Assembly: GCA_964519405.1 (NCBI GenBank)
Contig: CAZFLA010000001.1
Coordinates: forward strand, 29,956-93,955
Direction of reading: 5' to 3'
Length of the DNA: 64,000 nucleotides
Source of the DNA: an uncultured bacterium
GTDB taxonomy: Bacteria > Armatimonadota > HRBIN16
The notes under the pieces are model-generated. The model was not told where the DNA came from. It did not search any database and saw only the letters and a program-made list of their open reading frames with translations. Made by a program: the position numbers and the translations under genes. This document shows positions 2,896 through 31,295 of the stretch, in pieces. How positions within the stretch are numbered: the stretch's first letter is position 1; the number at the start of each line of letters is the position of its first letter.

Positions 2896-4500
2896 CTAGT
2901 GTACACCAACTGTATTTTGCTTGCCTGCACTGATGGCTTCTCGTAGCGCCTCACCGATACTGGTCTCACCCTCCGTCTGTTGGGCTGCGTCGTTGTTGGT
3001 GATCGCATCAGTCAGTGTGGCCAAGCCATTCTTAAGTAATACACAACTAAGTTTATAGCCCTCATGCTGCGTTATCTGCTGAGGAGTCGGGACAAGTCCC
3101 GACACATAGCCATAAAGCTTCTCAGCTTCGTTGCTGTGTGTTGTGAGTTCATTGTAAAGCTGTTCGCGAGTGGTCTTTTTGTCTTTCTGCGACTTAATAG
3201 CATCGGTGCTAAGCTGACAGATCTTTTGAATAGAAGGATACAAGTCAGCAACCAGGCTGCCGAAAATATCTGATCGTGTGGTTTCATCGGTATCAGGAAC
3301 CAACTTGTAGATCTGAGTGACCATATTGGCAGCGTCGGTAAATTGGTTTTTCAATGCGTAAAGATGAGCCAATTTCATGTATGGTTCGTAATGATCTTTG
3401 GCTGCATCAAGAGTCTTCTTAAGCAGTGTTTCGGCTTCGTTAAGACGTCCGTTGTTCCACAAAACATCTACCAACCGCAAAGCTATCTGCACGTTTGATG
3501 GGTCTTTGTCGAGCATTTGCCGAAATAGTTTCTCGGCTTCTTCTGGCTGATCAGCAGATACATACGCATCAGCGAGTGGACCTGCTAGTTCCGACACTGC
3601 TCCAATAAGTTCCGTGGCCCGTTTGGCTTCATTCAACGCTTCCGTATCCATCTTCAGTTTAAGATAGGCGTTTATAAGCTTCGCACGCGGAGCTGGTTGA
3701 AGCGGCTGTAAACTGATGGCATCACGGTATTTCGCGATGGCTAATGCAAGATCACCGGCTTGCAAGGCGCGATCACCAGCTTCTTCGTTCTGCTTCGATA
3801 AACTCGATGTATCACCCGTCGGTTCAGCAGGGCTTTCTGGAGCAACTGCTGCAGGTGCAGGTGTTGATGTCTCTTTAGTGGGTGCTTCGATCATCGCCGT
3901 GCCGTTCAAGGGCTCTGCAACAAGTTTGGTCGAAAGCGTTGATGCGGCTGTTCGTGCGGTGCTAATTCTGTCAATCTCTTTGTTTGATCCGCGGTAAATG
4001 ACAGGGGAATCAAACTTGTTTTGCCATGTCTGATTGCTATTTGTTGCTTTCCATACGGCCGATATGCGCAGTGTCATGTTCTTCGTGAATTTAACAGGTT
4101 GTTTATTTTTAGTTTTCTTTGCGATTTGTTTCGAAGGAGTAACCTGAACGGTATCTTCTACGAGCTGAGCTGAAATCTGCAATGAAGCCTGTGCGCCTAA
4201 CGCTGCCGATATGGCAAGCTGCTGGGTTGCATTAGGTGCGGCTATCGCTAAGTTTTTGTCAATTGAACCTTCTGCGACAAGTCGTTGGATGAACGGCTCT
4301 GAAGGTTGGTAAACCAGTGAGTCCGCTCGCTTCGTCTGCTCTATCTGCTCGCTTAAGGCTGCCGTAATTGGAAACGCCGATTCTGCGCTGTCAATCTGGT
4401 AGATAACAACCAACGGCCGCTTCTCCTTGGTTTGAGCTTCGACCGTGGAGAAGGCTGCTATACACATCACAAAACACAGAATGAAACCTAGTCGCCGCAT
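2896..4500 (-). CDS. Secreted tetratricopeptide-repeat protein
   Basis: N-terminal signal peptide MRRLGFILCFVMCIAAFSTVEA. TPR-like helical repeats in the C-terminal third. S/T/A-rich linker. Confidence 0.6.
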   Translation of the reverse strand: MRRLGFILCFVMCIAAFSTVEAQTKEKRPLVVIYQIDSAESAFPITAALSEQIEQTKRADSLVYQPSEPFIQRLVAEGSIDKNLAIAAPNATQQLAISAALGAQASLQISAQLVEDTVQVTPSKQIAKKTKNKQPVKFTKNMTLRISAVWKATNSNQTWQNKFDSPVIYRGSNKEIDRISTARTAASTLSTKLVAEPLNGTAMIEAPTKETSTPAPAAVAPESPAEPTGDTSSLSKQNEEAGDRALQAGDLALAIAKYRDAISLQPLQPAPRAKLINAYLKLKMDTEALNEAKRATELIGAVSELAGPLADAYVSADQPEEAEKLFRQMLDKDPSNVQIALRLVDVLWNNGRLNEAETLLKKTLDAAKDHYEPYMKLAHLYALKNQFTDAANMVTQIYKLVPDTDETTRSDIFGSLVADLYPSIQKICQLSTDAIKSQKDKKTTREQLYNELTTHSNEAEKLYGYVSGLVPTPQQITQHEGYKLSCVLLKNGLATLTDAITNNDAAQQTEGETSIGEALREAISAGKQNTVGVH

Positions 4501-17041: not shown

Positions 17042-19309
17042 CTACCTAGCTACTCCGCGCACGCGTGATATCTCTTGATACATCTTGACCAGTTTCGCGA
17101 ATTCGCCATCTTCTTTATCTTGCAGTTCCGTATGACTGCCAACCTCAGCCACCTCGCCCTGTTTCAACACGATCAGCCTGTCGGCATTCTTCAAAGTGCT
17201 CAGCCGGTGTGCAATAGCGAAGGTGGTTCGCCCCTTGACTAACCGGTCGATGGCTTCTTGTATCTGCTTTTCTGTTTCGATATCGACTTGGCTAGTGGCT
17301 TCATCGAGGATGAGTATCTTTGGGTTGTGCAGAACAGCTCGTGCGATTGCGATCCGCTGTTTTTCACCACCCGAAAGGCCTTGTCCGCCTTCACCAAGCA
17401 GCGTTTCGTAGCCGTCTGGACGGCGGATGATAAACTCATGCGCATTCGCTACGCGTGCGGCACTCACGATCTCTTCGCGGGTGGCATCGGGTTTTGCATA
17501 TGCGATGTTATCCGCGATGGTGCCTGCAAATAGGAAAGTGTCTTGCGGCACCAAGCCGATCTGCTTGCGTATCTCTTCAAGCTTCAGGTCTTTGATGTCT
17601 ACACCGTCAATGGTGATAGAGCCTTCGATGCAGTCGTAGAACCGGCAGAGCAGGTTAATTACCGTGCTCTTACCTGCGCCTGAGTGACCAACTAGCCCAA
17701 TCATCTCGCCGGGCTCCACCTTGAAGCTGACGTCCTTCAACACGTTTCGGTGCGGTTCGTATCCGAATGTGACGCCATGGAACTCTACTGTGCCCACGAT
17801 GTTCGGCAGTGCTTGTGCTTTGTCTGACTCTTTGACCTCTGGCTCCGTATCAAGAACCTCAAAGATGCGTTCGGCAGCGGTCATAGCGCGGCTGCTCCAG
17901 TTAAGCAGTGAGCTTAATGAACCGACTGGCTGGTAGAACATACCGACGAATGTAATGAACGCCATTAAAGTTCCTAAACTCATCTTCTCATCAAGAACTT
18001 CGCGCCCGCCGAAATACCAAACCAGCATAGTGCCCAGCATCATTAGCAGCGATATACCGCTGAACAGGAACGCCCAACTTCGGTCAACTGTCACAGCGCT
18101 TGTGGCGACATCAATGCTGGCTTTATCGAACCGCTCTATGGCTCGCTTTTCCTGAGCGAAGGCTTTGACGACACGCAACCCGTTGAGCCCTTCGGTCAAC
18201 ACGTTGTTGAGGGTGCTCCATCGCCGCCACATCCGGCGGAAGTTAATGCGCATCCGCATCCAGATAGCCTGTGCGAGTGCCGTCACGATAGGGGTAGGCA
18301 ACACCACGATGAGTGCGAGCTTCCAGCTCATGGCAAAGAGCATGGCGCCAATACCCACTACTTGCAGCAAGTTGATGACTAGGTCTTGCGCACCCCATAT
18401 CAAAAACTGCTGCAGGTTGTTTGTGTCTTGGTTGACACGAGATATGACCGAGCCGATCTGGCGCTTATCGAAAAATCCCAGCGAAAGATACTGCAGATGC
18501 TTATATAGTTTTGTGCGGATGTCGTGAGTGATGCGGTTGCCAACCCAGGCGCTGAGCCAGCTCTGGAATGCACTCACGAGTGCACCTACCACCCTTACCG
18601 CGATTAATGCCAGTGTTAACCACAACAACATCTTTAGGCGATCAGCTTTACTGATGTCTATCTTAGGGGCTAACGCGCTGTCCATTAACGGCTTTTGAAG
18701 GTATGGCGGAATTAGCCCGATGATTGTACCCAACATCGCCATGCCCGTCAGCCCCAATGCCTGCCACTTGATGGGCTTCATGAACGACACAAGCCTGTTG
18801 ATGGTCTGGAATCCTGGTCGGCACAACTGGCACACGGAAGTGCCTCGCTCTAGCAGCAGTCCGCACTTCGGGCAGTATTTACGGTCGTCTTCGGGAACTA
18901 AAGCCTCTTCACCCTTATGCCACTTCTCCAACAGGCCGGCAACTGAGGCGAATCGACCTATCTCGCGAGAAGTGTATCGAACCAGCTCAATGACGCAGTC
19001 ATCGCGTTTAGCTGTAAGGCGGCCTCCGCCAACCAGGCTTTCCGTTTTGAACTCCGAGAGCTCAGCGAAGGGGATGTCAAGCCGTAATACCGATCGACTA
19101 AGCTCTCGCGAATACACTAAGAGTTGTTCATCGGTAACGATCAGAAGTTCCTCGCCTAATTCACCGGTGGACAACATGTCCGCGACGATGACGAGACGTG
19201 GTTCACTTGACAGCGAGATATCATCGGGAAGTGGAGGTGTTACCAAAATCCATACCTCTTCTCTGAATATAATATGCGTGTATGTTATTCTACACGAGTT
19301 GGTAGGCAA
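17042..19309 (-). CDS. Fused ABC exporter (TMD plus NBD, MsbA-like type I) with an extra N-terminal bPH-like domain and a CxxC...CxxC zinc ribbon. The true start is probably about 20 codons downstream of the ORF start.
   Basis: Walker A GHSGAGKST, signature LSGGEKQRIAIARA, Walker B ILILDEATS. Six TM helices. N-terminal about 170 aa contain YCPKCG...CQLCRPG. Confidence 0.85.
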   Translation of the reverse strand: MPTNSCRITYTHIIFREEVWILVTPPLPDDISLSSEPRLVIVADMLSTGELGEELLIVTDEQLLVYSRELSRSVLRLDIPFAELSEFKTESLVGGGRLTAKRDDCVIELVRYTSREIGRFASVAGLLEKWHKGEEALVPEDDRKYCPKCGLLLERGTSVCQLCRPGFQTINRLVSFMKPIKWQALGLTGMAMLGTIIGLIPPYLQKPLMDSALAPKIDISKADRLKMLLWLTLALIAVRVVGALVSAFQSWLSAWVGNRITHDIRTKLYKHLQYLSLGFFDKRQIGSVISRVNQDTNNLQQFLIWGAQDLVINLLQVVGIGAMLFAMSWKLALIVVLPTPIVTALAQAIWMRMRINFRRMWRRWSTLNNVLTEGLNGLRVVKAFAQEKRAIERFDKASIDVATSAVTVDRSWAFLFSGISLLMMLGTMLVWYFGGREVLDEKMSLGTLMAFITFVGMFYQPVGSLSSLLNWSSRAMTAAERIFEVLDTEPEVKESDKAQALPNIVGTVEFHGVTFGYEPHRNVLKDVSFKVEPGEMIGLVGHSGAGKSTVINLLCRFYDCIEGSITIDGVDIKDLKLEEIRKQIGLVPQDTFLFAGTIADNIAYAKPDATREEIVSAARVANAHEFIIRRPDGYETLLGEGGQGLSGGEKQRIAIARAVLHNPKILILDEATSQVDIETEKQIQEAIDRLVKGRTTFAIAHRLSTLKNADRLIVLKQGEVAEVGSHTELQDKEDGEFAKLVKMYQEISRVRGVAR

Positions 19310-19427: not shown

Positions 19428-20639
19428 TTATACAGTGAATTCACGGACAGACGGTACCGCTCCATACCTGCCTGCCATGTATGCTTTTCGAAAGTTTTGT
19501 TCTACTCGTGCTTTGCTGCCCCAAAGGGGGTGAATGGTTGTTTGCTGCTGTGTGTCTTTCTCAGTAAACCATATCTGATCACGCCGGAAGAGATCACCAT
19601 CAAGCAAGGAGCAGTCGTGTGTTGTGAAGACAAACTGGAATGGTGCCGAGGCTTGCTGGTGCACTAGCTTAACCATGGCTCGCGTGAGCATGGGATGCAA
19701 ACTAGAATCTAGCTCATCACAAAACAGCACATTGCCATGGAAGATAGATTGAATGAAGGGGCCAGCAAGTGCAAATAGACGCTGTGTGCCATCGGATTCA
19801 TCATGCTGCAGGTCGAACTCCACGCTGTGTCCGCCGTTCTGCAACAGGTGAAGTGTCTTCACGCGGTAACCATCACGTGCGGATGTGTCTTTGATACATC
19901 GGATGCTATGGATGCCAAGGTCAGCTTCACGCATGATAGTGCCGACCTGCTCATGTATACAGTCGTCATTTAAGCACAAATCTGCCGTGATGCCGATATC
20001 AGGGCGCACATCCGAGTGATTAATCATCGTGCAGTATCTATTCAGAAACCAGTCATATACCGTCCCAGCAAGATCATGGTTGTTTTGCGCATATTTCGCC
20101 AGATAGAGCTGGTTGTCCAAAGTGTTGTCGGCAATTTTGTCATTCCGAGGCTTCCAATATTCGCCGAACTTGCTGTCATATCCGCTGTCAGACCGCCGAT
20201 GGCGCTCAAACAGCAGCCGTGGAGAGATTCGCTGTCCCGCCATACTCGCCTCATACAGCCATTCATCGGCGATCGCTAGTTGTGTCGCACTGAATCCGTA
20301 GGTGTATTTCACACCATCTGTGATGAAAGTTACTTCAAACTGCGTGGGGGCTGCTTGGTCGGATTCGTCCAGCATAAATGGGGTGACGTCAATATGTTGT
20401 CCGCGCTGCATGTCGTGCGATGACAGGATAATCTGGCGCATCAGCCCCAGCGCCTTGATGATGTTTGATTTACCAGACGCATTTGGCCCATATATCACCG
20501 CAGACTTGAGCAGCCGGAGCTTTCCGCTAGGGTCTAAGAAAGTGTTCTCCAGATAGTTGTCGTCTGGTGATGCCACAAGACTTAGCGTGACCTTGCTGCG
20601 CAATGATCGGTAGTTTGAGACATTGAATTCAACTAGCAT
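19428..20639 (-). CDS. AAA_21/ABC-type ATPase (SMC/RecF-like P-loop ATPase of the kind found in abortive-infection systems). Start moved to MLVEFNVSNY.
   Basis: N-terminus FNVSNYRSL...IYGPNASGKSNIIKAL Walker A. C-terminus SDGTQRLFAL...LFCDELDSSLHP (signature / Walker B / D-loop) ...FTTHD (H-loop). Confidence 0.75.
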   Translation of the reverse strand: MLVEFNVSNYRSLRSKVTLSLVASPDDNYLENTFLDPSGKLRLLKSAVIYGPNASGKSNIIKALGLMRQIILSSHDMQRGQHIDVTPFMLDESDQAAPTQFEVTFITDGVKYTYGFSATQLAIADEWLYEASMAGQRISPRLLFERHRRSDSGYDSKFGEYWKPRNDKIADNTLDNQLYLAKYAQNNHDLAGTVYDWFLNRYCTMINHSDVRPDIGITADLCLNDDCIHEQVGTIMREADLGIHSIRCIKDTSARDGYRVKTLHLLQNGGHSVEFDLQHDESDGTQRLFALAGPFIQSIFHGNVLFCDELDSSLHPMLTRAMVKLVHQQASAPFQFVFTTHDCSLLDGDLFRRDQIWFTEKDTQQQTTIHPLWGSKARVEQNFRKAYMAGRYGAVPSVREFTV

Positions 20640-20909
20640 TTCTGTCTGCCTTAGCAAATCGAGAATTACATCGGTGAAAAATCCGTGTATGCAGATATTA
20701 TAAACAGCAATATTGCATAAAATCAACACAAATACCAGTTATTAACGACAATATTGTGAAAATAACTGAAATACTATGTTGACGAAACTCAAAACTGTAT
20801 GTTGAGCCAGTATGTGGTGCGAGTGGTTATAAAGTATTGATGTAGGATATATCGCATTCCTTGTATAAATATCATGCAGCAGACATCTTTATTGATACAA
20901 GAGGCTAAC

Positions 20910-22823
20910 ATGAAGCGTTCACCTGCGTTTGGGTTTAGTTATCGTGCCATCATACTCGGTTTACTGCTTATCATCCCCAATGTCTTCTGGACCATATACG
21001 GCGAGGTTATCTCGCAAACTGACCTCAATTCCACGTCATTAATGATGCCTCCATTGTGCACACTGCTGCTGTTGATTGTGTGTAATGGCCTAGTTAAGCG
21101 GGTGAAACCTGGCAAGGAACTCACGCCGAGCGAGATGATGTGTGTATACATCCTCATCACAATTGCCACGGTTTTAGCGGGAATGGGTATGCTGCAGTTT
21201 ATCGTCACCACACTGCCAGCAGGATACCATTACGGAATTAGCTCTACAGATATCGCAAATGTCACAAAAAGCATCCCCGCTTGGGCTATGCCGAGTGCCG
21301 AAGTGACGGAGAAGTTTTACCGAGGAAACAGCGCAGTGCCATGGAAAGCATGGTTGGGACCTTTGAGCTTTTGGGGCTGCTTTTTGCTGGTGATGGTGTG
21401 GACGATGTATTGCGTTAACGCCATGTTCCGCAAACAGTGGATGGACCGTGAGCGCTTGACCTATCCTATAGTTCAGCTGCCCATAGAGATGATTGATCCG
21501 CAGTCAGGTTTCTTTCGAAACAAGCTGATGTGGGCAGGATTTCTAGTGCCCGTCATTCTAGAAAGCATGAACAGCCTGAATACATTGTTTCCGAACATCC
21601 CGTATCTGCAACTGCGCGCATACAGTTTAAGCTCATTTTTTACGGAGAAACCATGGAATGCGATGGGGGCGCTGCAGTCCACTTTCTATCCACTAGCGAT
21701 AGGTTTGGGCTACCTGCTGCCTGCGGATGTTAGTTTTAGCTGCTCATTTTTCTATATCCTCACGCGTTTGGAAAATGTAGCCACTAACGCATTTGGATTG
21801 AACTCTGGACCAGGAACTAGCGGGCAGTGGCCGTATCTCGCAGGGCAAGGAGTAGGCGGGTTCATCGGCTTAGCCTTGATGACGATCTGGATAGCTAGGC
21901 ATCACCTTGCCGATGTCTGGCAAGGTGCAGTGCATCCAGACAAAGCTGATGATGCCGATGAACCGATGAGTTATCGTGCTGCTTGTATCGGGCTGTTGGT
22001 CGGTTTTGCAGCCATGATGGGCTTCGGTTTGGTGTTCAAGATATCGCCGATAGTATTTGGTGTGTACCTCATCATATACTTGGCCTTTTCGCTGACCATT
22101 GCGCGGCTGCGTGCTGAAGCCGGTCCCGCATGGACGATGGGACCGATGTTGTCTGCTGTTAATGTAACTCACAATACACTTGGCACCATAAACATATCCA
22201 CGCAAGACATGCACAAAATGGCTATGTTTACCTGGTTTTCCGTAGAGATGCGGTGCTGCCCAATGCCAGTGAGTGCGGAAGCTATCAAGATGCAGCATCG
22301 TCCCGGTAAAGGTCGCTCGATACTCAGTGGGATGATTATGTTGGCGTCAGCCGTTGGTATTATCACCGGGTTCATTGCGTTGCTAACGGTGTATTATCAA
22401 ACCGGAGCGGCAAGCAGTAAGGTGGATGTCTGGCGCACGGCCATGGGGTTGAATCCGTATCAAACGGCTTCTGCGGCGGCACTCAATCCGAAGAATCCAG
22501 ATTGGTCGCAGATAGGCGCTGCCGGGTTTGGCACCTTGGTGACTATTGGCTTAAGTGCGGCTAGAACCGCGTTTGTGTGGTGGCCGCTGCATCCAGCCGG
22601 ATATGTGCTTGGCAATACCAGCACGATGGATTGGTTATGGCTGCCGTTTCTCATTGCGTGGGTATTTAAGGTAAGCTTTTTAAAGGTGGGCGGAGTGAAA
22701 AGCTATCGAAATGCTCTACCGTTCTTCATGGGGTTGATAGTAGGTGACTACGTCACGAGCGCATTGTGGTCGTTGCTCGGAAGCCTACTGAGAACACCTA
22801 TGTATCGGTGCTTCCCGTGTTAG
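20910..22823 (+). CDS. Large polytopic membrane protein of unknown family (about 12 or more TM helices). Start moved to MKRSPAFGF, which has an AAGAGG RBS.
   Basis: Hydrophobic segments throughout. No recognisable transporter signature. Confidence 0.55.
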   Translation: MKRSPAFGFSYRAIILGLLLIIPNVFWTIYGEVISQTDLNSTSLMMPPLCTLLLLIVCNGLVKRVKPGKELTPSEMMCVYILITIATVLAGMGMLQFIVTTLPAGYHYGISSTDIANVTKSIPAWAMPSAEVTEKFYRGNSAVPWKAWLGPLSFWGCFLLVMVWTMYCVNAMFRKQWMDRERLTYPIVQLPIEMIDPQSGFFRNKLMWAGFLVPVILESMNSLNTLFPNIPYLQLRAYSLSSFFTEKPWNAMGALQSTFYPLAIGLGYLLPADVSFSCSFFYILTRLENVATNAFGLNSGPGTSGQWPYLAGQGVGGFIGLALMTIWIARHHLADVWQGAVHPDKADDADEPMSYRAACIGLLVGFAAMMGFGLVFKISPIVFGVYLIIYLAFSLTIARLRAEAGPAWTMGPMLSAVNVTHNTLGTINISTQDMHKMAMFTWFSVEMRCCPMPVSAEAIKMQHRPGKGRSILSGMIMLASAVGIITGFIALLTVYYQTGAASSKVDVWRTAMGLNPYQTASAAALNPKNPDWSQIGAAGFGTLVTIGLSAARTAFVWWPLHPAGYVLGNTSTMDWLWLPFLIAWVFKVSFLKVGGVKSYRNALPFFMGLIVGDYVTSALWSLLGSLLRTPMYRCFPC

Positions 22824-24621: not shown

Positions 24622-24660
24622 CAGTGGTAAACGAAATCACCACTGTGTGACATTTTTTTG
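24622..24660 (+). terminator. Rho-independent terminator after the URO-D-like gene
   Basis: CAGTGGT-loop-ACCACTG stem followed by TTTTTTT. Confidence 0.7.
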
Positions 24661-24675
24661 ATATGGAGAAGATCA

Positions 24676-25614
24676 GTGAGATCAAAGAAGAGTAAACTGA
24701 TTATTTCTGCTGCGATTGTGCTCGCTTTGGTTTATGTGATCGCATGGGCCGACTGTGTTTTTACGAATACTATAGCCAACTACCCAGTGATCGGTCGATC
24801 TGACCTGAAATCCGTGCTTTCTGGTGATGCTTATTACCAGCTTGACAAGGTTGTGAACCTTAGGACGCAAAAGAGTTGGAAAGTCACTGGCAGGGTTCTG
24901 ATATGGGATGCTAGACATAACAAACCCCTCGCAGCTTGGCTGCCAGGCAACGAGGGTGCGTGTGACACTGTGACGCTTTATGACGCAGATGGTAAGCCTT
25001 GGTATATCAAAAACACGGCATATGGTAGCTTGTTTCGAACCAGGTGGTACTGCGATTCCCATAGACGCTTCTTTCTACATGAAATAACTGATCAGCAATA
25101 CGATGACGATATCACTAGCATGGTGGCTGTGTATGATACGGAACCTCGATCTGTTAAGCATATGTTTATACCAAAATATACTGCAGCACCTGCTGACGGG
25201 GAAGGAGGTTTCTGGGTATACACCGGTAAGGGATTGGCTGTATGGAGCGCACTCACTAATACCATGACCGATATGGTCCCGATAGAACCATCGGTGGTAC
25301 GGAGCGGCCATCGTAAGTTCGGCATCTCACCGGACGGTCGAAAAGCTGTGATCATGCGTGAGAAACGCGGGTTGCCCTTTCACTTGGTGGGTCGAGGTTT
25401 TGATGTCATTGATATCAAGACCAATCATCGAAAAACTATATGGATATCGAGCTTTGGCGTTTGGTGGGATACCTTTAAAGTCGGTTTCGTCGACAATGAC
25501 CATTTATACGTTAATGCGTATTCTACAGACTACCTAGTGCGTATCCGTGACAACAAAGTTTGGTGTATCAGCGATTACCCGTTCAAGCTGTTGCCTGCGA
25601 TATATCATGAATAG
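24676..25614 (+). CDS. Membrane-anchored hypothetical protein (N-terminal TM, probably extracytoplasmic beta-rich domain). Putative GTG start with a GGAGAAGA RBS.
   Basis: TM helix LIISAAIVLALVYVIAW. W/Y-rich beta-like C-terminal region. No known domain recognised. Confidence 0.45.
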   Translation: MRSKKSKLIISAAIVLALVYVIAWADCVFTNTIANYPVIGRSDLKSVLSGDAYYQLDKVVNLRTQKSWKVTGRVLIWDARHNKPLAAWLPGNEGACDTVTLYDADGKPWYIKNTAYGSLFRTRWYCDSHRRFFLHEITDQQYDDDITSMVAVYDTEPRSVKHMFIPKYTAAPADGEGGFWVYTGKGLAVWSALTNTMTDMVPIEPSVVRSGHRKFGISPDGRKAVIMREKRGLPFHLVGRGFDVIDIKTNHRKTIWISSFGVWWDTFKVGFVDNDHLYVNAYSTDYLVRIRDNKVWCISDYPFKLLPAIYHE

Positions 25615-25707: not shown

Positions 25708-26532
25708 ATGGTTCATGGATGGATTCTTGGTTCGTTAGTATTAGGGACCACGCTCTGCTCGATGTTGGCCTTCGCGGGTGATGCACAAGGGCTTCAGAAA
25801 CCGGTGGATGTGGCATTTAAAGCCAAACTTGACGGCTCTGAGCAACGATATGTGCTGATGCTGCCCGATTCCTTTGATAAAACTCAGAAACACGATGTGC
25901 TGATAGCCCTGCACGGTCACGGATCGGACAGATGGCAGTATGTGCAGCAGGAACGGGGTGAGTGCCGTGGAGCACGCGACATGGCTGCGAAATACCAGAT
26001 GATATATGTGTCGCCGGATTACCGCGCATCTACCTCGTGGATGGGGCCTAAAGCCGAAGCTGATATGCTGCAGATCATTTCGGAGCTTAAGCGTAAATAC
26101 CGTGTCAACCGGGTTTTCCTTATTGGCGGATCAATGGGTGCTACCTCGACGCTCACTTTTGCGGCACTTCATCCCAACCTAATTAGCGGCGTGTGCTGTC
26201 AGAACCCGTTGGCTAACCATATGTTGTATGAAAACTTTCAAGACGCCATTTCTGCTTCGTTTGGCGGGACGAAGCAGCAGGTGCCGATGGAATATAAAAA
26301 GCGCAGTGCTGAATACTGGCCCGAGCGGTTCACCTTTCCGGTTGCCATCACCACTGGCGGACTAGATACTAGTGTGCCGCCCGATAGCGCTATCCGATTA
26401 GCAAACACTCTTAAAGTAATGGGGCGTGATGTGCTGTTGATACACCGCGAGCAGACCGGCCACGAAACGAACTACGACGATACCGTTGCGGCATTCGAAT
26501 TTGTGATGTCGCACGCGAAGAAGACCCCCTAG
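25708..26532 (+). CDS. Secreted alpha/beta-hydrolase (esterase/depolymerase-like, prolyl-oligopeptidase superfamily)
   Basis: Signal peptide. Nucleophile elbow GGSMG. HGHGSD oxyanion region. C-terminal His. Confidence 0.75.
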   Translation: MVHGWILGSLVLGTTLCSMLAFAGDAQGLQKPVDVAFKAKLDGSEQRYVLMLPDSFDKTQKHDVLIALHGHGSDRWQYVQQERGECRGARDMAAKYQMIYVSPDYRASTSWMGPKAEADMLQIISELKRKYRVNRVFLIGGSMGATSTLTFAALHPNLISGVCCQNPLANHMLYENFQDAISASFGGTKQQVPMEYKKRSAEYWPERFTFPVAITTGGLDTSVPPDSAIRLANTLKVMGRDVLLIHREQTGHETNYDDTVAAFEFVMSHAKKTP

Positions 26533-26566
26533 CCGTGCAACTGCTGGGGTTTGATATGGTGTATCT

Positions 26567-26599
26567 GCGTGTAGATGGTTATTGATACCATCTACACGC
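26567..26599. terminator. Strong 13-bp-stem hairpin between the esterase gene and the DUF488 cassette (terminator or insulator)
   Basis: GCGTGTAGATGGT-tattgat-ACCATCTACACGC read directly from the sequence. Weak T-tract. Confidence 0.4.
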
Positions 26600-26639
26600 A
26601 GTGGGGTATCATTTATGCAGGAGAGTGCATAAACGAGAG

Positions 26640-27206
26640 ATGGCGAACGCGATATATACTATAGGTCACAGCAACCACCCAATAGAACATTTCTACGCTT
26701 TACTGGGGCAGCATCACATACATACATTGGTTGATGTTCGCACATCACCATATAGCCAGTATGCTGCATGGTTTAATAAAGAAGAGCTTAGTGACGGTAT
26801 AAAGAAACTGGGCTTACAGTATTATTATGCGGGCAAGCATCTTGGCGGTCGCCCGACAGGATCGGTGTTTTACGATAAGAATGGTTATGCACTGTATGAT
26901 GTGATGGCTGCAGATAAGCAGTTCATTAAAGCGTTGTCTCAGCTGCGCCATTTAGCCGCAATTTCATCACCGTTGGTGATCATGTGCAGTGAAGAAAATC
27001 CACGACTATGTCATCGAGGCTTGTTAATATCGCGTGTTCTTGATCAACAAGGTGTTGATGTGCAGCACATTATGGGTGACGGCAGTGTACAACCTCATCG
27101 TACTCTCTTTACCCATCAACTGTCGCTGATAGACGGAGAAGATGAGTGGAAGTCTATACGATCGGTTTTACAACCAAGTCCGCAAGAGAGTTCTTCAACA
27201 CAATAA
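26640..27206 (+). CDS. DUF488-family protein, paralog 1. Start at MANAIYTIGHSNH.
   Basis: N-terminal IYTIGHSN...LVDVR motif and the later GG/CHR elements of DUF488 (YeaO-like). The 3' end overlaps the next ORF by about 61 nt. Confidence 0.7.
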   Translation: MANAIYTIGHSNHPIEHFYALLGQHHIHTLVDVRTSPYSQYAAWFNKEELSDGIKKLGLQYYYAGKHLGGRPTGSVFYDKNGYALYDVMAADKQFIKALSQLRHLAAISSPLVIMCSEENPRLCHRGLLISRVLDQQGVDVQHIMGDGSVQPHRTLFTHQLSLIDGEDEWKSIRSVLQPSPQESSSTQ

Positions 27207-27586
27207 AGACTGCGGGTATCAAAAGACTTCTTGATATTCGTCTGAATAACAAATCCCAGCTAGCAGGATTCACGAAATGCCAGGACTTAAGCTATTTTCT
27301 GGAGCATATCTGTGGATGCCGCTATGAGCACGATGTTGATCTAGCTCCTACAGCCTCAATCCTTGCCGCCTACCGGAAAGACCACTGTTGGGTAAATTAT
27401 GAAATTGCTTTTCAACAGTTGTTGATGGCTAGAGACAAACAGCTTCAGATAAAGTATTCCGCTGAGTATTTTAAAATTCCGACTGTGTTATTATGCAGCG
27501 AACCTACGCCTGATCACTGTCATAGAAGGTTAGTGGCTGAGTATTTACACAACCTATACAGCGATCTGCATGTCGTTCATCTCTAA
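27146..27586 (+). CDS. DUF488-family protein, paralog 2
   Basis: MEVYTIGFTTKS...LLDIR...LAP...LLCSEPTPDHCHRRLVAEYL matches the DUF488 consensus. Confidence 0.7.
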   Translation: MEVYTIGFTTKSAREFFNTIKTAGIKRLLDIRLNNKSQLAGFTKCQDLSYFLEHICGCRYEHDVDLAPTASILAAYRKDHCWVNYEIAFQQLLMARDKQLQIKYSAEYFKIPTVLLCSEPTPDHCHRRLVAEYLHNLYSDLHVVHL

Positions 27587-27600
27587 TCGGGTGACTATGA

Positions 27601-28224
27601 ATGAGTCGCATTGTGCTTTTAGCCAACTCAAGAAAGTGGAATGCTCGTTGTTTGGCTGGTATCGATCAGGTGACTGGCCGATGGATTAGGCCTGTTAGCT
27701 CACTTGTGGGTATATGTCATAGCTGGCCAGCGAATCTCATTAACGATATCGATGTTTTCGATGTGATTGAATACAAATCCAGCGTTCCTCAACCGCTAAA
27801 TTACCATCCCGAAGATGAACTGCTTCTTGATCAGCCAAAACGGGTAGCACGGTTGAGCGACGATGAGATACAGGCGATGTGTGGAAAACTCAATGCGAGT
27901 GATGTCCATGAATTCATAGCAGATCGAGTTGCTATCGCCGAAGAGGAACTATCGGAGCGTGCACTGACATGCAGCTTGGCGGCATGTGTATGTAACGAGG
28001 TCTGTGTATATCAGGCTCAGCACCATGACAACATGCGATGTTGGTTCATGCTTGGAAATAGGAAGTATGAATTGCCATGCACTGATGACTATAGTATAGC
28101 TTCGGAAACCATGACCGTCGGTGATGTCCTGCATGGCCGTTTTCTTGTTTGCTTGAGCGTAGGGGAACCATATCGTGGGTATCACTATAAACTTGTTGCG
28201 ACATTACGACGTCTGCCTGAATAA
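27601..28224 (+). CDS. Hypothetical protein (207 aa), third gene of the DUF488 cassette
   Basis: Gap of 15 nt from paralog 2 on the same strand. Cys-containing. No recognisable domain. Confidence 0.5.
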   Translation: MSRIVLLANSRKWNARCLAGIDQVTGRWIRPVSSLVGICHSWPANLINDIDVFDVIEYKSSVPQPLNYHPEDELLLDQPKRVARLSDDEIQAMCGKLNASDVHEFIADRVAIAEEELSERALTCSLAACVCNEVCVYQAQHHDNMRCWFMLGNRKYELPCTDDYSIASETMTVGDVLHGRFLVCLSVGEPYRGYHYKLVATLRRLPE

Positions 28225-28234
28225 TATCGAAATT

Positions 28235-28609
28235 CTAGTAGCCGTGACCTGGTTGCGAGGAGAGATACCGCTCAAACCGGTTCTTTTCGTCAACCAGAAT
28301 GACCTTGGCGGAGACAGCTTCGTCGGCAAGCGCAAATGCGGCGACGATGATTTGGTCGCCTTCTTTAGCGAGGTGAGCTCCCGCGCCGTTGATACACATC
28401 TGACCACTGCCTGGTTTACCTTCGATGATGTAGGTTTCGAACCGGGATCCGTTGGTAATGTTCCAGATGTGCACCAACTCACCGGTATTCATACCTACCT
28501 TCGCAAGTAAGGTGCTGTCTATGGTGATGCTGCCGATATAGTCTAGGTTGGCTTCGGTAACAGTTGCTTTGTGTATTTTGGCTCGGAGAAACTGACGCAA
28601 TATCATCAC
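28235..28609 (-). CDS. panD: Aspartate 1-decarboxylase
   Basis: LRAKIHKATVTEANLDYIGSITID...GSRFETY...GSGQMCINGAGAHL are classic PanD motifs. Confidence 0.88.
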   Translation of the reverse strand: MMILRQFLRAKIHKATVTEANLDYIGSITIDSTLLAKVGMNTGELVHIWNITNGSRFETYIIEGKPGSGQMCINGAGAHLAKEGDQIIVAAFALADEAVSAKVILVDEKNRFERYLSSQPGHGY

Positions 28610-29319: not shown

Positions 29320-30015
29320 TTACACTGTTATTGTTATGCCAGAGGCTAGGATGGGCCTGTGATCTGAGGCAGGGCTTTCCATCACTCGGATGGCTTCAGC
29401 TTTAACGTCTTCAGTCGCAAGTATATAGTCTATGCGATGGGTGGGGGTATCGGCTGGGAACGTAAACTCTTCCGATCCAAGTTCGGTTGCCATGTCGCAT
29501 AATCCAGATTTCTTGATCAGTGTTTTTACCGCTTGCTTATCTGATGTTTCGTTGAAATCACCGCAGATGACTTTAGGCCCTGCTACCGCATTCATGATGC
29601 CTGAAATGAACGTGGCTTGGTTTACTCGTTCGGCAGAGCCAAGGCCGAGGTGTGTACAGAAAACACTGATAACTCCACCCTCCGATGCAACCTGAGCGTG
29701 AATGAGCCCTCGCTGTTCGTCCTCACTGGGAAGCAGATAGGTGTTGATCTTTGTAATCGGCAGTTTTGACAACAGCGCTATTCCGTAGTTGTAGTGAGCA
29801 AGGGGCAATACACCATGAAACAGTGTATTCATGCTTAGCGCTTTAGACAGCAGTGTTGGCTGATCACCAAATCCATGTCCTGGCTCCCATTGTTCCACCT
29901 CTTGTAGGCAGATAATGTCTGCATTCCACCGAAGCAGCTCTCCTGCGACACGATCAAGTGAACGGAAGTTGTCGATACCGCGTCCTGCACGAATGTTATA
30001 GGTTAGAATATTCAT
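29320..30015 (-). CDS. Endonuclease/exonuclease/phosphatase (EEP) family protein
   Basis: N-terminus MNILTYNIRAGRG...ADIICLQEV and a C-terminal SDHRP motif. Confidence 0.75.
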   Translation of the reverse strand: MNILTYNIRAGRGIDNFRSLDRVAGELLRWNADIICLQEVEQWEPGHGFGDQPTLLSKALSMNTLFHGVLPLAHYNYGIALLSKLPITKINTYLLPSEDEQRGLIHAQVASEGGVISVFCTHLGLGSAERVNQATFISGIMNAVAGPKVICGDFNETSDKQAVKTLIKKSGLCDMATELGSEEFTFPADTPTHRIDYILATEDVKAEAIRVMESPASDHRPILASGITITV

Positions 30016-31295
30016 TTGTTGTTGCCAATCACCTTGTTAGTATCTGCTGTCTGAATAGCGATGTTGCGAAATTGGACGTCTTGAACGCTGTTACCCACTA
30101 GGAACCGATCTGATTTCGTGCAGGTGACATTGATATTCTCAATGAGCACATTACGGAAATCAATCTGTTTGTATCCCTGGATGGTGCCTGGGTTATCACA
30201 CTCACCAGTGAAATTGCGAATCACGATGTTGCGGAAGTGCGAATATCCTTTATCTATCGGTAGAGCTGCCTTCGCGAAGTCCGCTTCCCAGTGCTCGTTC
30301 TGACCAAATGGGATCTCGCATGAGATTAACCGGGCGACATTCTTGATATGGAAGTTCTCAACGATGATGTTTTCCGCACCGCCGCCGCGCCCAAGCGCGG
30401 TTTTGAACCTGACGACAGGGTTGTAGTATCCGTATTTGGGGTCGGTATCGGTAAGCCCATCAACTGTGCAGTTCGTGGCATGAACATTGCGGATCCATCC
30501 GGATATCTCGCTGCCGCAGTCGATAACTCCATGCCCAGAACCGAAACGACAGTTCCGGATGATTACATTTTCTGTGGGGCGGTTTGCTTGGATACCTAGA
30601 ATATCCCGTCCTGATTTCAACGAGATGCCGTCGTCGGACACCGAAATATAACACCCTTCGATCAATACGTCGCTGGATGAGTCCACATCGATACCGTCCG
30701 AGCTAGGGGCCGCAACTGGGCCAATAGGTGCGGTTATCGTGAGGTTTCGCACCACGGCATGGCTGCAGTAAAGAAGGTGCAGGTTCCAGAATGAAGAATC
30801 TTTGAGGTGCAGTCCATCTATGTTGATATTGGAGCCGTTGCATACGCTGATCAGCTTAGGGTAGTTCGCCCAATCCGCCGGTTTGTCCTTAGCCTTTTGA
30901 TACTTCCAAAACTCCTGCCACCATTTCAGCCCGCTTCCATCGAGCGTGCCTTTACCGTAGATATGCACATCGGTGAGGCCCTTATCTTTATATGTGCCCG
31001 CATTGACAAGTGCAGCCGGACCTTTTAGCTCGCTGCCAGCCCACAGATTGGTCACCACCGCAAAGTCCTGACGGTTTTGCGATGCCTTCAATACTGCGCC
31101 TTCTTGTAGCCAAAGCTGAACGGATTGCTTCAAAAAGAGTGATCCCGATATGAATGTACCGGCAGGGATGACAACCACACCGCCGCCTTTACCAGCACAG
31201 ACATCAATAGCCTTCTGTATTGCCTTGGTGTTCAGTGTGTCAGCGTTAGCACGAGCACCATAATCCGTTATTTTATACTCAGTCGGGGTTTTCAT
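30012..31295 (-). CDS. Glycoside hydrolase family 28 (polygalacturonase-like, right-handed beta-helix)
   Basis: SDGIDV / DDGISLKSG / GSGHG motifs typical of GH28. ATGA overlap with the EEP gene. Confidence 0.8.
   Translation of the reverse strand: MKTPTEYKITDYGARANADTLNTKAIQKAIDVCAGKGGGVVVIPAGTFISGSLFLKQSVQLWLQEGAVLKASQNRQDFAVVTNLWAGSELKGPAALVNAGTYKDKGLTDVHIYGKGTLDGSGLKWWQEFWKYQKAKDKPADWANYPKLISVCNGSNINIDGLHLKDSSFWNLHLLYCSHAVVRNLTITAPIGPVAAPSSDGIDVDSSSDVLIEGCYISVSDDGISLKSGRDILGIQANRPTENVIIRNCRFGSGHGVIDCGSEISGWIRNVHATNCTVDGLTDTDPKYGYYNPVVRFKTALGRGGGAENIIVENFHIKNVARLISCEIPFGQNEHWEADFAKAALPIDKGYSHFRNIVIRNFTGECDNPGTIQGYKQIDFRNVLIENINVTCTKSDRFLVGNSVQDVQFRNIAIQTADTNKVIGNNK

Follow-up and report, generated by a model that had tools for sequence, protein, structure and literature searches.

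DUF488 is a very widespread protein domain with no demonstrated function. Its Escherichia coli member, YeaO, has no published function, and the sole phenotype that we found for it came from a screen on CRISPR adaptation, in which its deletion changed where spacers were drawn from. A clade of RapZ-C, DUF488 and DUF4326 proteins, together with a predicted role in 'DNA-end processing', reportedly goes back to Burroughs and Aravind in 2023. DUF4326 has been proposed to process terminal phosphates on the ribose of ADP-ribose derivatives (PMC9503650). The described system closest to the locus treated here is PDC-M45 of the PADLOC collection; the PDC sets, 145 in number and untested, are cassettes that lie within BREX, DISARM or type I restriction-modification (R-M) loci (Payne et al., bioRxiv 10.1101/2024.01.29.577857). 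We analysed a 64,000-nucleotide (nt) stretch of DNA from an uncultured bacterium (assembly GCA_964519405.1; hereafter the window), in which three adjacent genes, here called B, C and DuOB, encode two DUF488 proteins and a tandem OB-fold protein. With moderate confidence, we read this block as a conflict (defence-type) module of the PDC-M45 kind that consists of three genes and is self-contained.

Such cassettes are widespread and were already catalogued as PDC-M45, of which the window copy is a divergent member. What our analysis adds is the stop-loss origin of the overlap between B and C, the persistence of the cassette at a fixed site in this lineage, and evidence for the exchange of DuOB alleles while the enzyme genes stay put. 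Neither 'PDC-M45' nor 'DuOB' led to a relevant paper in the literature searched.

A divergent PDC-M45 cassette next to panD

The three plus-strand open reading frames (ORFs) of the cassette are tightly packed between an alpha/beta-hydrolase gene and the convergent gene panD:

25708-26532, plus strand: alpha/beta-hydrolase gene, upstream neighbour of the cassette
26461-28303: recombination tract, comprising the whole cassette and reaching about 70 nt into both neighbouring genes
26565-26601, plus strand: inverted repeat with a perfect 15-bp stem and a 7-nt loop
26640-27206, plus strand: gene B, long canonical DUF488 protein of 188 amino acids (aa) (Pfam DUF488 4e-19; PDC-M45B 2.8e-46)
27135-27148, plus strand: translational-coupling junction, a Shine-Dalgarno-like GGAGAAG and the GTG start of C
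27146-27206, plus strand: B/C overlap, 61 nt
27146-27586, plus strand: gene C, short DUF488 protein (146 aa) from the N3a ('active') subclade
27601-28224, plus strand: gene DuOB, tandem OB-fold protein, 207 aa
28235-28609, minus strand: panD (Asp_decarbox 6.8e-42)

An earlier note on this stretch, made without database searches, had described two diverged DUF488 genes with an overlap of about 61 nt, followed after 15 nt by a 207-aa protein without a recognisable domain, the whole being convergent with panD. The DUF488 pair, the overlap (exactly 61 nt) and the convergence (panD on the minus strand, with 10 nt between the stop codons) all held. The gap between C and DuOB was 14 nt, the position from which the block had been counted, 26567, lies within the hairpin and not in a gene, and the third protein matched Pfam PF22557 (DuOB, 'Dual OB-containing domain') over its full length (residues 3-201 of 207; 101.1 bits, E = 1.2e-28, cut-off 27). 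Both B (69.8 bits) and C (65.2 bits, E = 1.1e-17) exceeded the gathering cut-off of 22.2 for PF04343 (DUF488), and they aligned with each other as diverged paralogues, at 29% identity over 135 aa (E = 6e-11). C also matched PF22751 (DUF488-N3a, the 'active N3 subclade') with 31.6 bits against a cut-off of 27, and B, with 15.8 bits, fell outside that subclade.

Each of the three proteins had a PDC-M45 model as its best match in PADLOC, M45B for B, M45C for C (5.3e-53) and M45A for DuOB (2.1e-23), and the genes have the PDC-M45 layout, being contiguous and co-directional, as they are in 58 other loci. The window copy differs from PDC-M45 in its divergence and in a read-through junction, with TGG for TGA, between B and C. 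E. coli YeaO shares PF04343 with B and C but is a solo gene without a DuOB partner.

B carries the motifs TIGHS, DVR(S/T)xP and CxExxPxxCHR and retains every conserved residue (T7, G9, H10, S11, D32, V33, R34, C116, E118, C124, H125 and R126). The C-x-E...C-H-R motif recurs in C (C117, E119, C125, H126 and R127) and was conserved at 90% or more in both proteins across 55 loci; TIGHS, present in B, reads T-I-G-F-T in C, with Phe for His across the C family. The motifs of the DuOB family are LLANSxK...C.AG...W.RP, QxEN, TD and YKLVA, and the window protein keeps 24 of the 26 positions with at least 90% conservation, the deviations being Q69 to H and N72 to D. The invariant polar residues of the family (S10, K12, C17, R30, E71, D162, Y196 and K197) hint that DuOB binds a specific ligand or may even have a catalytic site. 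At window positions 27805-27816 (DuOB residues 69-72), QxEN is replaced by HPED, as it is in both syntenic relatives described below; the change is clade-specific, and these residues are a probable functional site. Some DuOB proteins are longer: P0009 (341 aa), P0017 (329 aa) and the product of L076 8001-8990 are extended at the C-terminus by about 120 aa, in which paired Cys-x2-Cys motifs resemble a zinc ribbon, and these versions occur in the same triplet context. An extra 122-aa ORF matching DUF488, DUF488-N3a and DUF488-N3i was seen about 4.6 kb 3' of a Nitrospinota triplet (L006 10984-11352).

Predicted folds and protein fusions

Sequence searches of the PDB gave no relatives for any of the three proteins, and for DuOB nothing below E = 0.4. 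The model of C (predicted local distance difference test, pLDDT, 89.8) has a Cys-phosphatase-like fold and is a Rossmannoid of the protein tyrosine phosphatase (PTP)/rhodanese-like type. The strand formed by residues 113-117 ends in Cys117; the loop SEPTPDHC comes next, and then a helix that starts from His126-Arg127-Arg128, which places Cys117, in the model, at the topological position of the nucleophile and phosphate loop of PTPs and dual-specificity phosphatases (DSPs). The predicted fold, the Cys at the strand end, the loop and the Arg helix are features that C shares with baculovirus BVP, PIR1, laforin and SEX4, enzymes that act on polynucleotide or glucan phosphates; BVP is a baculovirus RNA 5'-phosphatase. 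Unlike these phosphatases, to which it has no detectable sequence similarity, C has a Cx7CHR loop in place of CX5R, an extra conserved Glu and a second Cys.

DuOB was modelled (pLDDT 82; predicted template modelling score, pTM, 0.82) as two OB barrels, with a helical insert that was predicted less confidently. Its structural matches were MCM10, telomere-end-binding protein alpha (115 residues aligned), STN1, RPA, SSB and PriB; the best of them, namely telomere-end-binding protein alpha, CST/STN1, RPA, SSB and PriB, are tandem-OB binders of single-stranded DNA (ssDNA) or DNA ends. The resemblance to the SSB, RPA and telomere-end-binding proteins is one of fold, with no sequence homology, and the polar set of DuOB is its own. 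A search of the viral structures in BFVD with DuOB gave nothing significant. DuOB was fused to DUF488 in a single chain in three proteins (P0210, P0243 and P0270), and elsewhere to the RQC-HRDC-helix-turn-helix (HTH) C-terminal region of RecQ, to HRDC, or to an AAA_13 ABC-type ATPase. These fusions argue for a physical association of DuOB with DUF488 and for a role directed at DNA.

Distribution and mobility of the module

We scanned species-representative genomes with a 10-sequence subset of the DuOB alignment, and then with hidden Markov models (HMMs) built from the seed triplets. The scan yielded 74 loci in about 14 phyla, and at 58 non-redundant loci all three genes were intact and shared a strand. 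The gene order was B-C-DuOB at 39 of these and DuOB-B-C at the other 19, B being upstream of C in both. No fourth gene recurred among the triplet loci, except through synteny among close relatives. DuOB homologues in the collected loci were 27-33% identical to the window protein, yet the same triplet stood in unrelated neighbourhoods. The C family alone comprised 3,547 clusters at 90% identity, nearly all of them 144-146 aa long, and the DuOB family 4,424 clusters at 50% identity. The earlier view that a tandem DUF488 pair with a partner is unusual gave way to one of a widespread and already catalogued arrangement. The module moves between phyla.

A sister architecture, DuOB-C-mSLOG-DUF4326, was found in Vibrio vulnificus (L001) and on a plasmid (L087). 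It has the DuOB and C core of the window (identity of C about 45-52%), coupled just as tightly, and differs from it in having an mSLOG-DUF4326 fusion in place of the canonical B and in placing DuOB first. On the 4167-bp mobilizable enterobacterial plasmid (L087, NZ_CP056340.1) these genes take up about 1.7 kb of 4.2 kb and are essentially the sole cargo. The DuOB gene of this plasmid spans the origin of the record (3753-4167 and 1-200) and is unannotated.

Mobile elements carried the module more widely. In IMG/VR, 34 contigs had it, 24 as DuOB-C and 10 as the full triplet, and the gene downstream of DuOB-C was mSLOG-DUF4326 in all seven contigs tested; the sister architecture as well as the triplet is present on predicted proviral contigs. 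A C-type gene was present on 132 plasmids, 82 of which are conjugative. Two large, unrelated plasmids of Acinetobacter and Comamonas (L088 7001-9653 and L089 7001-9734) have a solo C-type DUF488 gene directly 5' of a uvrB paralogue; its product is 47-51% identical to the window C, and no DuOB lies nearby.

Replacement of alleles at a fixed chromosomal site

The nearest relatives of the window C protein, 62-66% identical to it, were found on two contigs, L091 and L092, one of which is an NCBI metagenome-assembled genome labelled Armatimonadota and the other a contig of 5.2 Mb. Both contigs hold the cassette at the same site, in the order folK, URO-D, a further gene (x), hydrolase, B-C-DuOB, panD, so that an origin of the window in Armatimonadota is probable. 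The window proteins matched those of the two contigs at the following levels of identity:

URO-D: 90%
panD: 82-85%
hydrolase: 75%
B: 62%
C: 62-66%
DuOB: 36-37%

Because these contigs share the site at a C identity of just 62-66%, the cassette is an old resident of this lineage, and a recent horizontal insertion in this genome was ruled out on the same ground. Recombinational replacement at a fixed site fits the comparison better, with an old syntenic cassette that is maintained by recombination.

The two relatives also differed from each other in a telling way. Their flanking proteins were 91-98% identical, B 96%, C 85% and DuOB 49%. Nucleotide identity, at 90-100% up to that point, was about 50% over exactly the stretch that starts ~80 nt short of the end of C and closes with DuOB, and it recovered in panD. 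The differences in C were concentrated in its last 15 residues, and its C-terminal helix (residues 130-146) co-varies or was co-transferred with DuOB. Since neighbouring sites diverge by about 5%, the DuOB segment was replaced by a foreign allele and did not arise by local drift. A like decoupling was seen in the pairs L042/L049, L037/L071 and L054/L083; some clades co-diverge evenly. Median pairwise identity was 44% for B, 52% for C and 36% for DuOB, so that, by sequence comparison, DuOB is the fastest-evolving component and C the most conserved. The combination of near-identical enzyme genes with DuOB proteins only 49% identical in L091 and L092 amounts to a natural experiment, and it points to DuOB as a specificity determinant. 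There is an analogy here with type I R-M systems, in which hsdS swapping replaces the recognition subunit and leaves the enzymatic subunits near-identical, and with other immune loci; the proteins are unrelated to those of the cassette, and DuOB is a putative specificity determinant.

Strains closer to the window showed a different pattern, which adds to the natural experiment in that an identical cassette stands on diverged backgrounds. The flanks of strain contigs L084 and L085 differed from the window by 4.7-5.4% (synonymous divergence, dS, 0.10-0.17), and the segment 26461-28303 contained just one or two mismatches (at 26937 and 26957; Poisson P ~ 2e-25 for two or fewer). Such a contrast indicates that the cassette as a whole was recently transferred by recombination, or swept, among strains. 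We searched for empty sites with identical panD and hydrolase queries, and every contig found has the cassette; presence/absence polymorphism was not seen.

Origin of the 61-nt overlap between B and C

C is read in the -1 frame relative to B, so the overlap DNA encodes both the B tail WKSIRSVLQPSPQESSSTQ and the C N-terminus MEVYTIGFTTKSAREFFNTIK. The end of B contains a Shine-Dalgarno-like GGAGAAG (27135-27141), and the GTG start of C (27146) follows 4 nt downstream. The commonest B/C junction, in 20 loci, was a 4-nt NTGA overlap, which is the classic arrangement for translational coupling. An overlap of 61 nt was found in seven loci from several phyla, the window included, and one of 58 nt in the closest relatives of the window. 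The junction was NTGG in all tabulated loci with a 58- or 61-nt overlap and NTGA in all those with a 4-nt overlap, and B reads through the former into a tail of about 19 codons (W-K/R-S...), up to the next in-frame stop. Thus, the overlap is explained as an ancestral ATGA coupling junction in which the TGA stop was changed to TGG (Trp).

The -1 frame of C and an overlap length common to seven loci in several phyla might also suggest a programmed -1 frameshift site that yields a DUF488-DUF488 fusion. We looked for a slippery heptamer of the form X XXY YYZ and found none common to the window, L003 and L008. A Shine-Dalgarno sequence of its own precedes C, whose start codon is at position 1 of its profile, a fusion within the overlap would remove the conserved first strand of C, and a TGA-to-TGG change at the ATGA junction that most loci use accounts fully for the overlap. 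Because every long-overlap locus has NTGG and there is no common slippery heptamer, we favour coupling followed by stop loss; the probability of frameshifting is negligible, and we ruled out a B-C fusion of this kind.

Proposed function and alternative explanations

The earlier note had suggested an accessory module, possibly directed at nucleic acids or nucleotides. Our results bear this out: the HMM scores for DUF488 lie above threshold, the triplet is co-conserved in 58 loci, each protein matches PDC-M45, the predicted folds and the RecQ RQC/HRDC fusions agree with it, and DuOB is not a housekeeping family. We can go further and sketch a mechanism, which belongs to this preferred reading and shares its moderate confidence. 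B and C would be made at about 1:1 and act as a heteromer. DuOB would serve as the specificity or sensor subunit: having bound an invading replicon at its DNA ends or at single-stranded nucleic acid, it would recruit or release the B-C pair. The pair might then remove or transfer a terminal phosphate or sugar-phosphate on the bound nucleic acid via a covalent Cys intermediate, leaving altered ends that would be useless for replication, ligation or packaging. Variable DuOB alleles would reflect selection to follow changing targets. A bolder reading, which we consider fairly unlikely, has a hypervariable, swappable tandem-OB subunit recognise single-stranded regions or termini of invader DNA and guide a heteromeric pair of rhodanese-phosphatase-superfamily enzymes to modify these ends; it would be a new immune mechanism, namely restriction by end modification and not by cleavage, NAD depletion or abortive infection, and would provide the first function for DUF488. 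If the end-processing chemistry is real, it would be a new effector principle in prokaryotic immunity; if not, the cassette and its relatives would disclose a new repair activity.

Several observations weigh against a defence role. The cassette has no tRNA and no mobile-element genes around it in the window and is neither embedded in nor beside BREX, DISARM or type I R-M systems (though such embedding does not strictly define the PDC sets), and the nearest defence-like gene, for an AbiLi-like ATPase, is 6 kb upstream. No C homologue was found in the curated phage genomes of INPHARED. About 10 of 150 flanking proteins at other loci were defence-related (Cas1, two; DruA, one; type I R-M, two; OLD/Gabija/AbiL-type ATPases, about three), an enrichment that was counted without a baseline and is suggestive only. 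The window DuOB departs from its family at the near-invariant positions Q69 and N72, although both changes are common to its closest relatives. Finally, staying in place on the chromosome while C diverged to 62-66% identity is what a useful housekeeping gene would do as well.

This last point is one of several that fit a housekeeping or stress role in nucleic-acid end healing or repair, in which DuOB would hold damaged ssDNA or RNA ends and B-C would trim terminal phosphates. The fixed position (folK, URO-D, hydrolase / cassette / panD), the housekeeping genes around it, the C-type DUF488 genes directly 5' of plasmid uvrB paralogues, the fusions of DuOB to RecQ-type modules and the changed spacer source on yeaO deletion in E. 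coli would all suit such a role. Housekeeping repair genes do not normally have one subunit swapped for a 50%-diverged allele, however, and strain-level sweeps, persistent low GC content, sole-cargo status on 4-kb plasmids and a sporadic scatter over phyla with unrelated flanks are not expected of them; the module also matches a candidate set that was defined by embedding in defence systems. We regard repair as unlikely, while taking it more seriously than the remaining alternatives. One of these has B-C acting on small phosphorylated ribose compounds (signals or adducts derived from NAD+ or ADP-ribose) and not on polynucleotide ends, with DuOB as a ligand sensor. The mSLOG-DUF4326 protein that takes the place of B in the sister architecture speaks for it, but the fold and the fusions of DuOB (RQC, HRDC, HTH) indicate polynucleotides, and a SLOG, Macro, NADAR or ART partner is missing from the window version; we hold nucleotide processing to be quite improbable.

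We give still less credence to a selfish addiction module that ensures its own stability in the manner of a toxin-antitoxin pair. Overlapping and tightly coupled genes, essentially sole-cargo status on 4.2-kb mobilizable plasmids and frequent carriage on conjugative plasmids are what one might see of such a module. No small, labile antitoxin-like or HTH component is present, however, the proteins look like an enzyme pair and a binder, and long vertical retention at one site with hypervariability confined to the OB subunit fits target tracking better. The conflict module remains our preferred reading of the cassette.

Hairpin, gene starts and base composition

The hairpin noted earlier ahead of the block is there, and its stem, given as 13 bp, is 15 bp long. 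It lies 33 nt past the hydrolase stop and 38 nt ahead of the B start codon, in a 101-nt region with a folding energy of -38.9 kcal/mol (z = -5.6 against shuffled sequences). No T-run follows the stem, and it was not reported as a terminator-like site; no second copy occurs in the window, and the hairpin is not conserved in L091 or L092. A REP-like repeat and a canonical terminator were ruled out on these grounds. The hairpin may be a stabiliser of the hydrolase transcript or an operator.

The most likely start of B is ATG 26640 (MANAIYTIGHS...), because a 188-aa protein was called on two of three sister contigs and this start agrees with the N-terminus of the family. An alternative GTG at 26601, which falls within the hairpin, would give 201 aa. 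In L091 (7500-7560) and L092 (4140-4170), gene B has no ATG, GTG or TTG ahead of the TIGHS motif, the frame reading ...VQIIETIYTIGHS. Initiation there is probably at ATC or ATA after AAGG, and gene callers shortened the B protein in both.

The block had also been described as AT-richer than its flanks, and a windowed GC run showed this more clearly than had been claimed. The cassette has a GC content of 0.449 against a window mean of 0.501, the lowest of all 1585-nt segments in the 64 kb (0.2nd percentile). GC at third codon positions was 0.39-0.45 in the cassette and 0.51-0.62 in most other genes tested. In L091 and L092 the cassette is likewise 7 GC points under its surroundings.

Neighbouring genes

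The surroundings of the cassette consist of housekeeping and carbohydrate-active genes (GH9, CdaA/YbbR, GT4, folK, panD and GH36; also GNAT and EEP). The AbiLi-like gene (19428-20729, minus strand) encodes an AAA_21/ABC ATPase with a PADLOC AbiLi match of 1.5e-90 and adjoins 20400-21000, the short stretch of lowest GC in the region (0.365-0.43); it may be a separate abortive-infection-type gene. An ordinary ABC exporter (17042-19309, minus strand; ABC_membrane and ABC_tran) gave matches to mad3 (1.4e-33) and mad8 (1.7e-07), and MADS matches (mad3, mad8) among the flanks were discounted as false positives on ABC exporters.

A 318-aa ORF at 24658-25614 had no Pfam or PADLOC match, and L091 and L092 have an unrelated 183-aa ORF instead (18% identity). 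Its ratio of non-synonymous to synonymous divergence (dN/dS) was 0.24, above that of the neighbouring flank genes other than GNAT. Strain contig L084, 96.7% identical, lacks a GH28-like gene (30012-31295, minus strand) and joins window position 30097 directly to 31314; the segment 30098-31313 is a strain-level indel that affects a single glycoside hydrolase gene.

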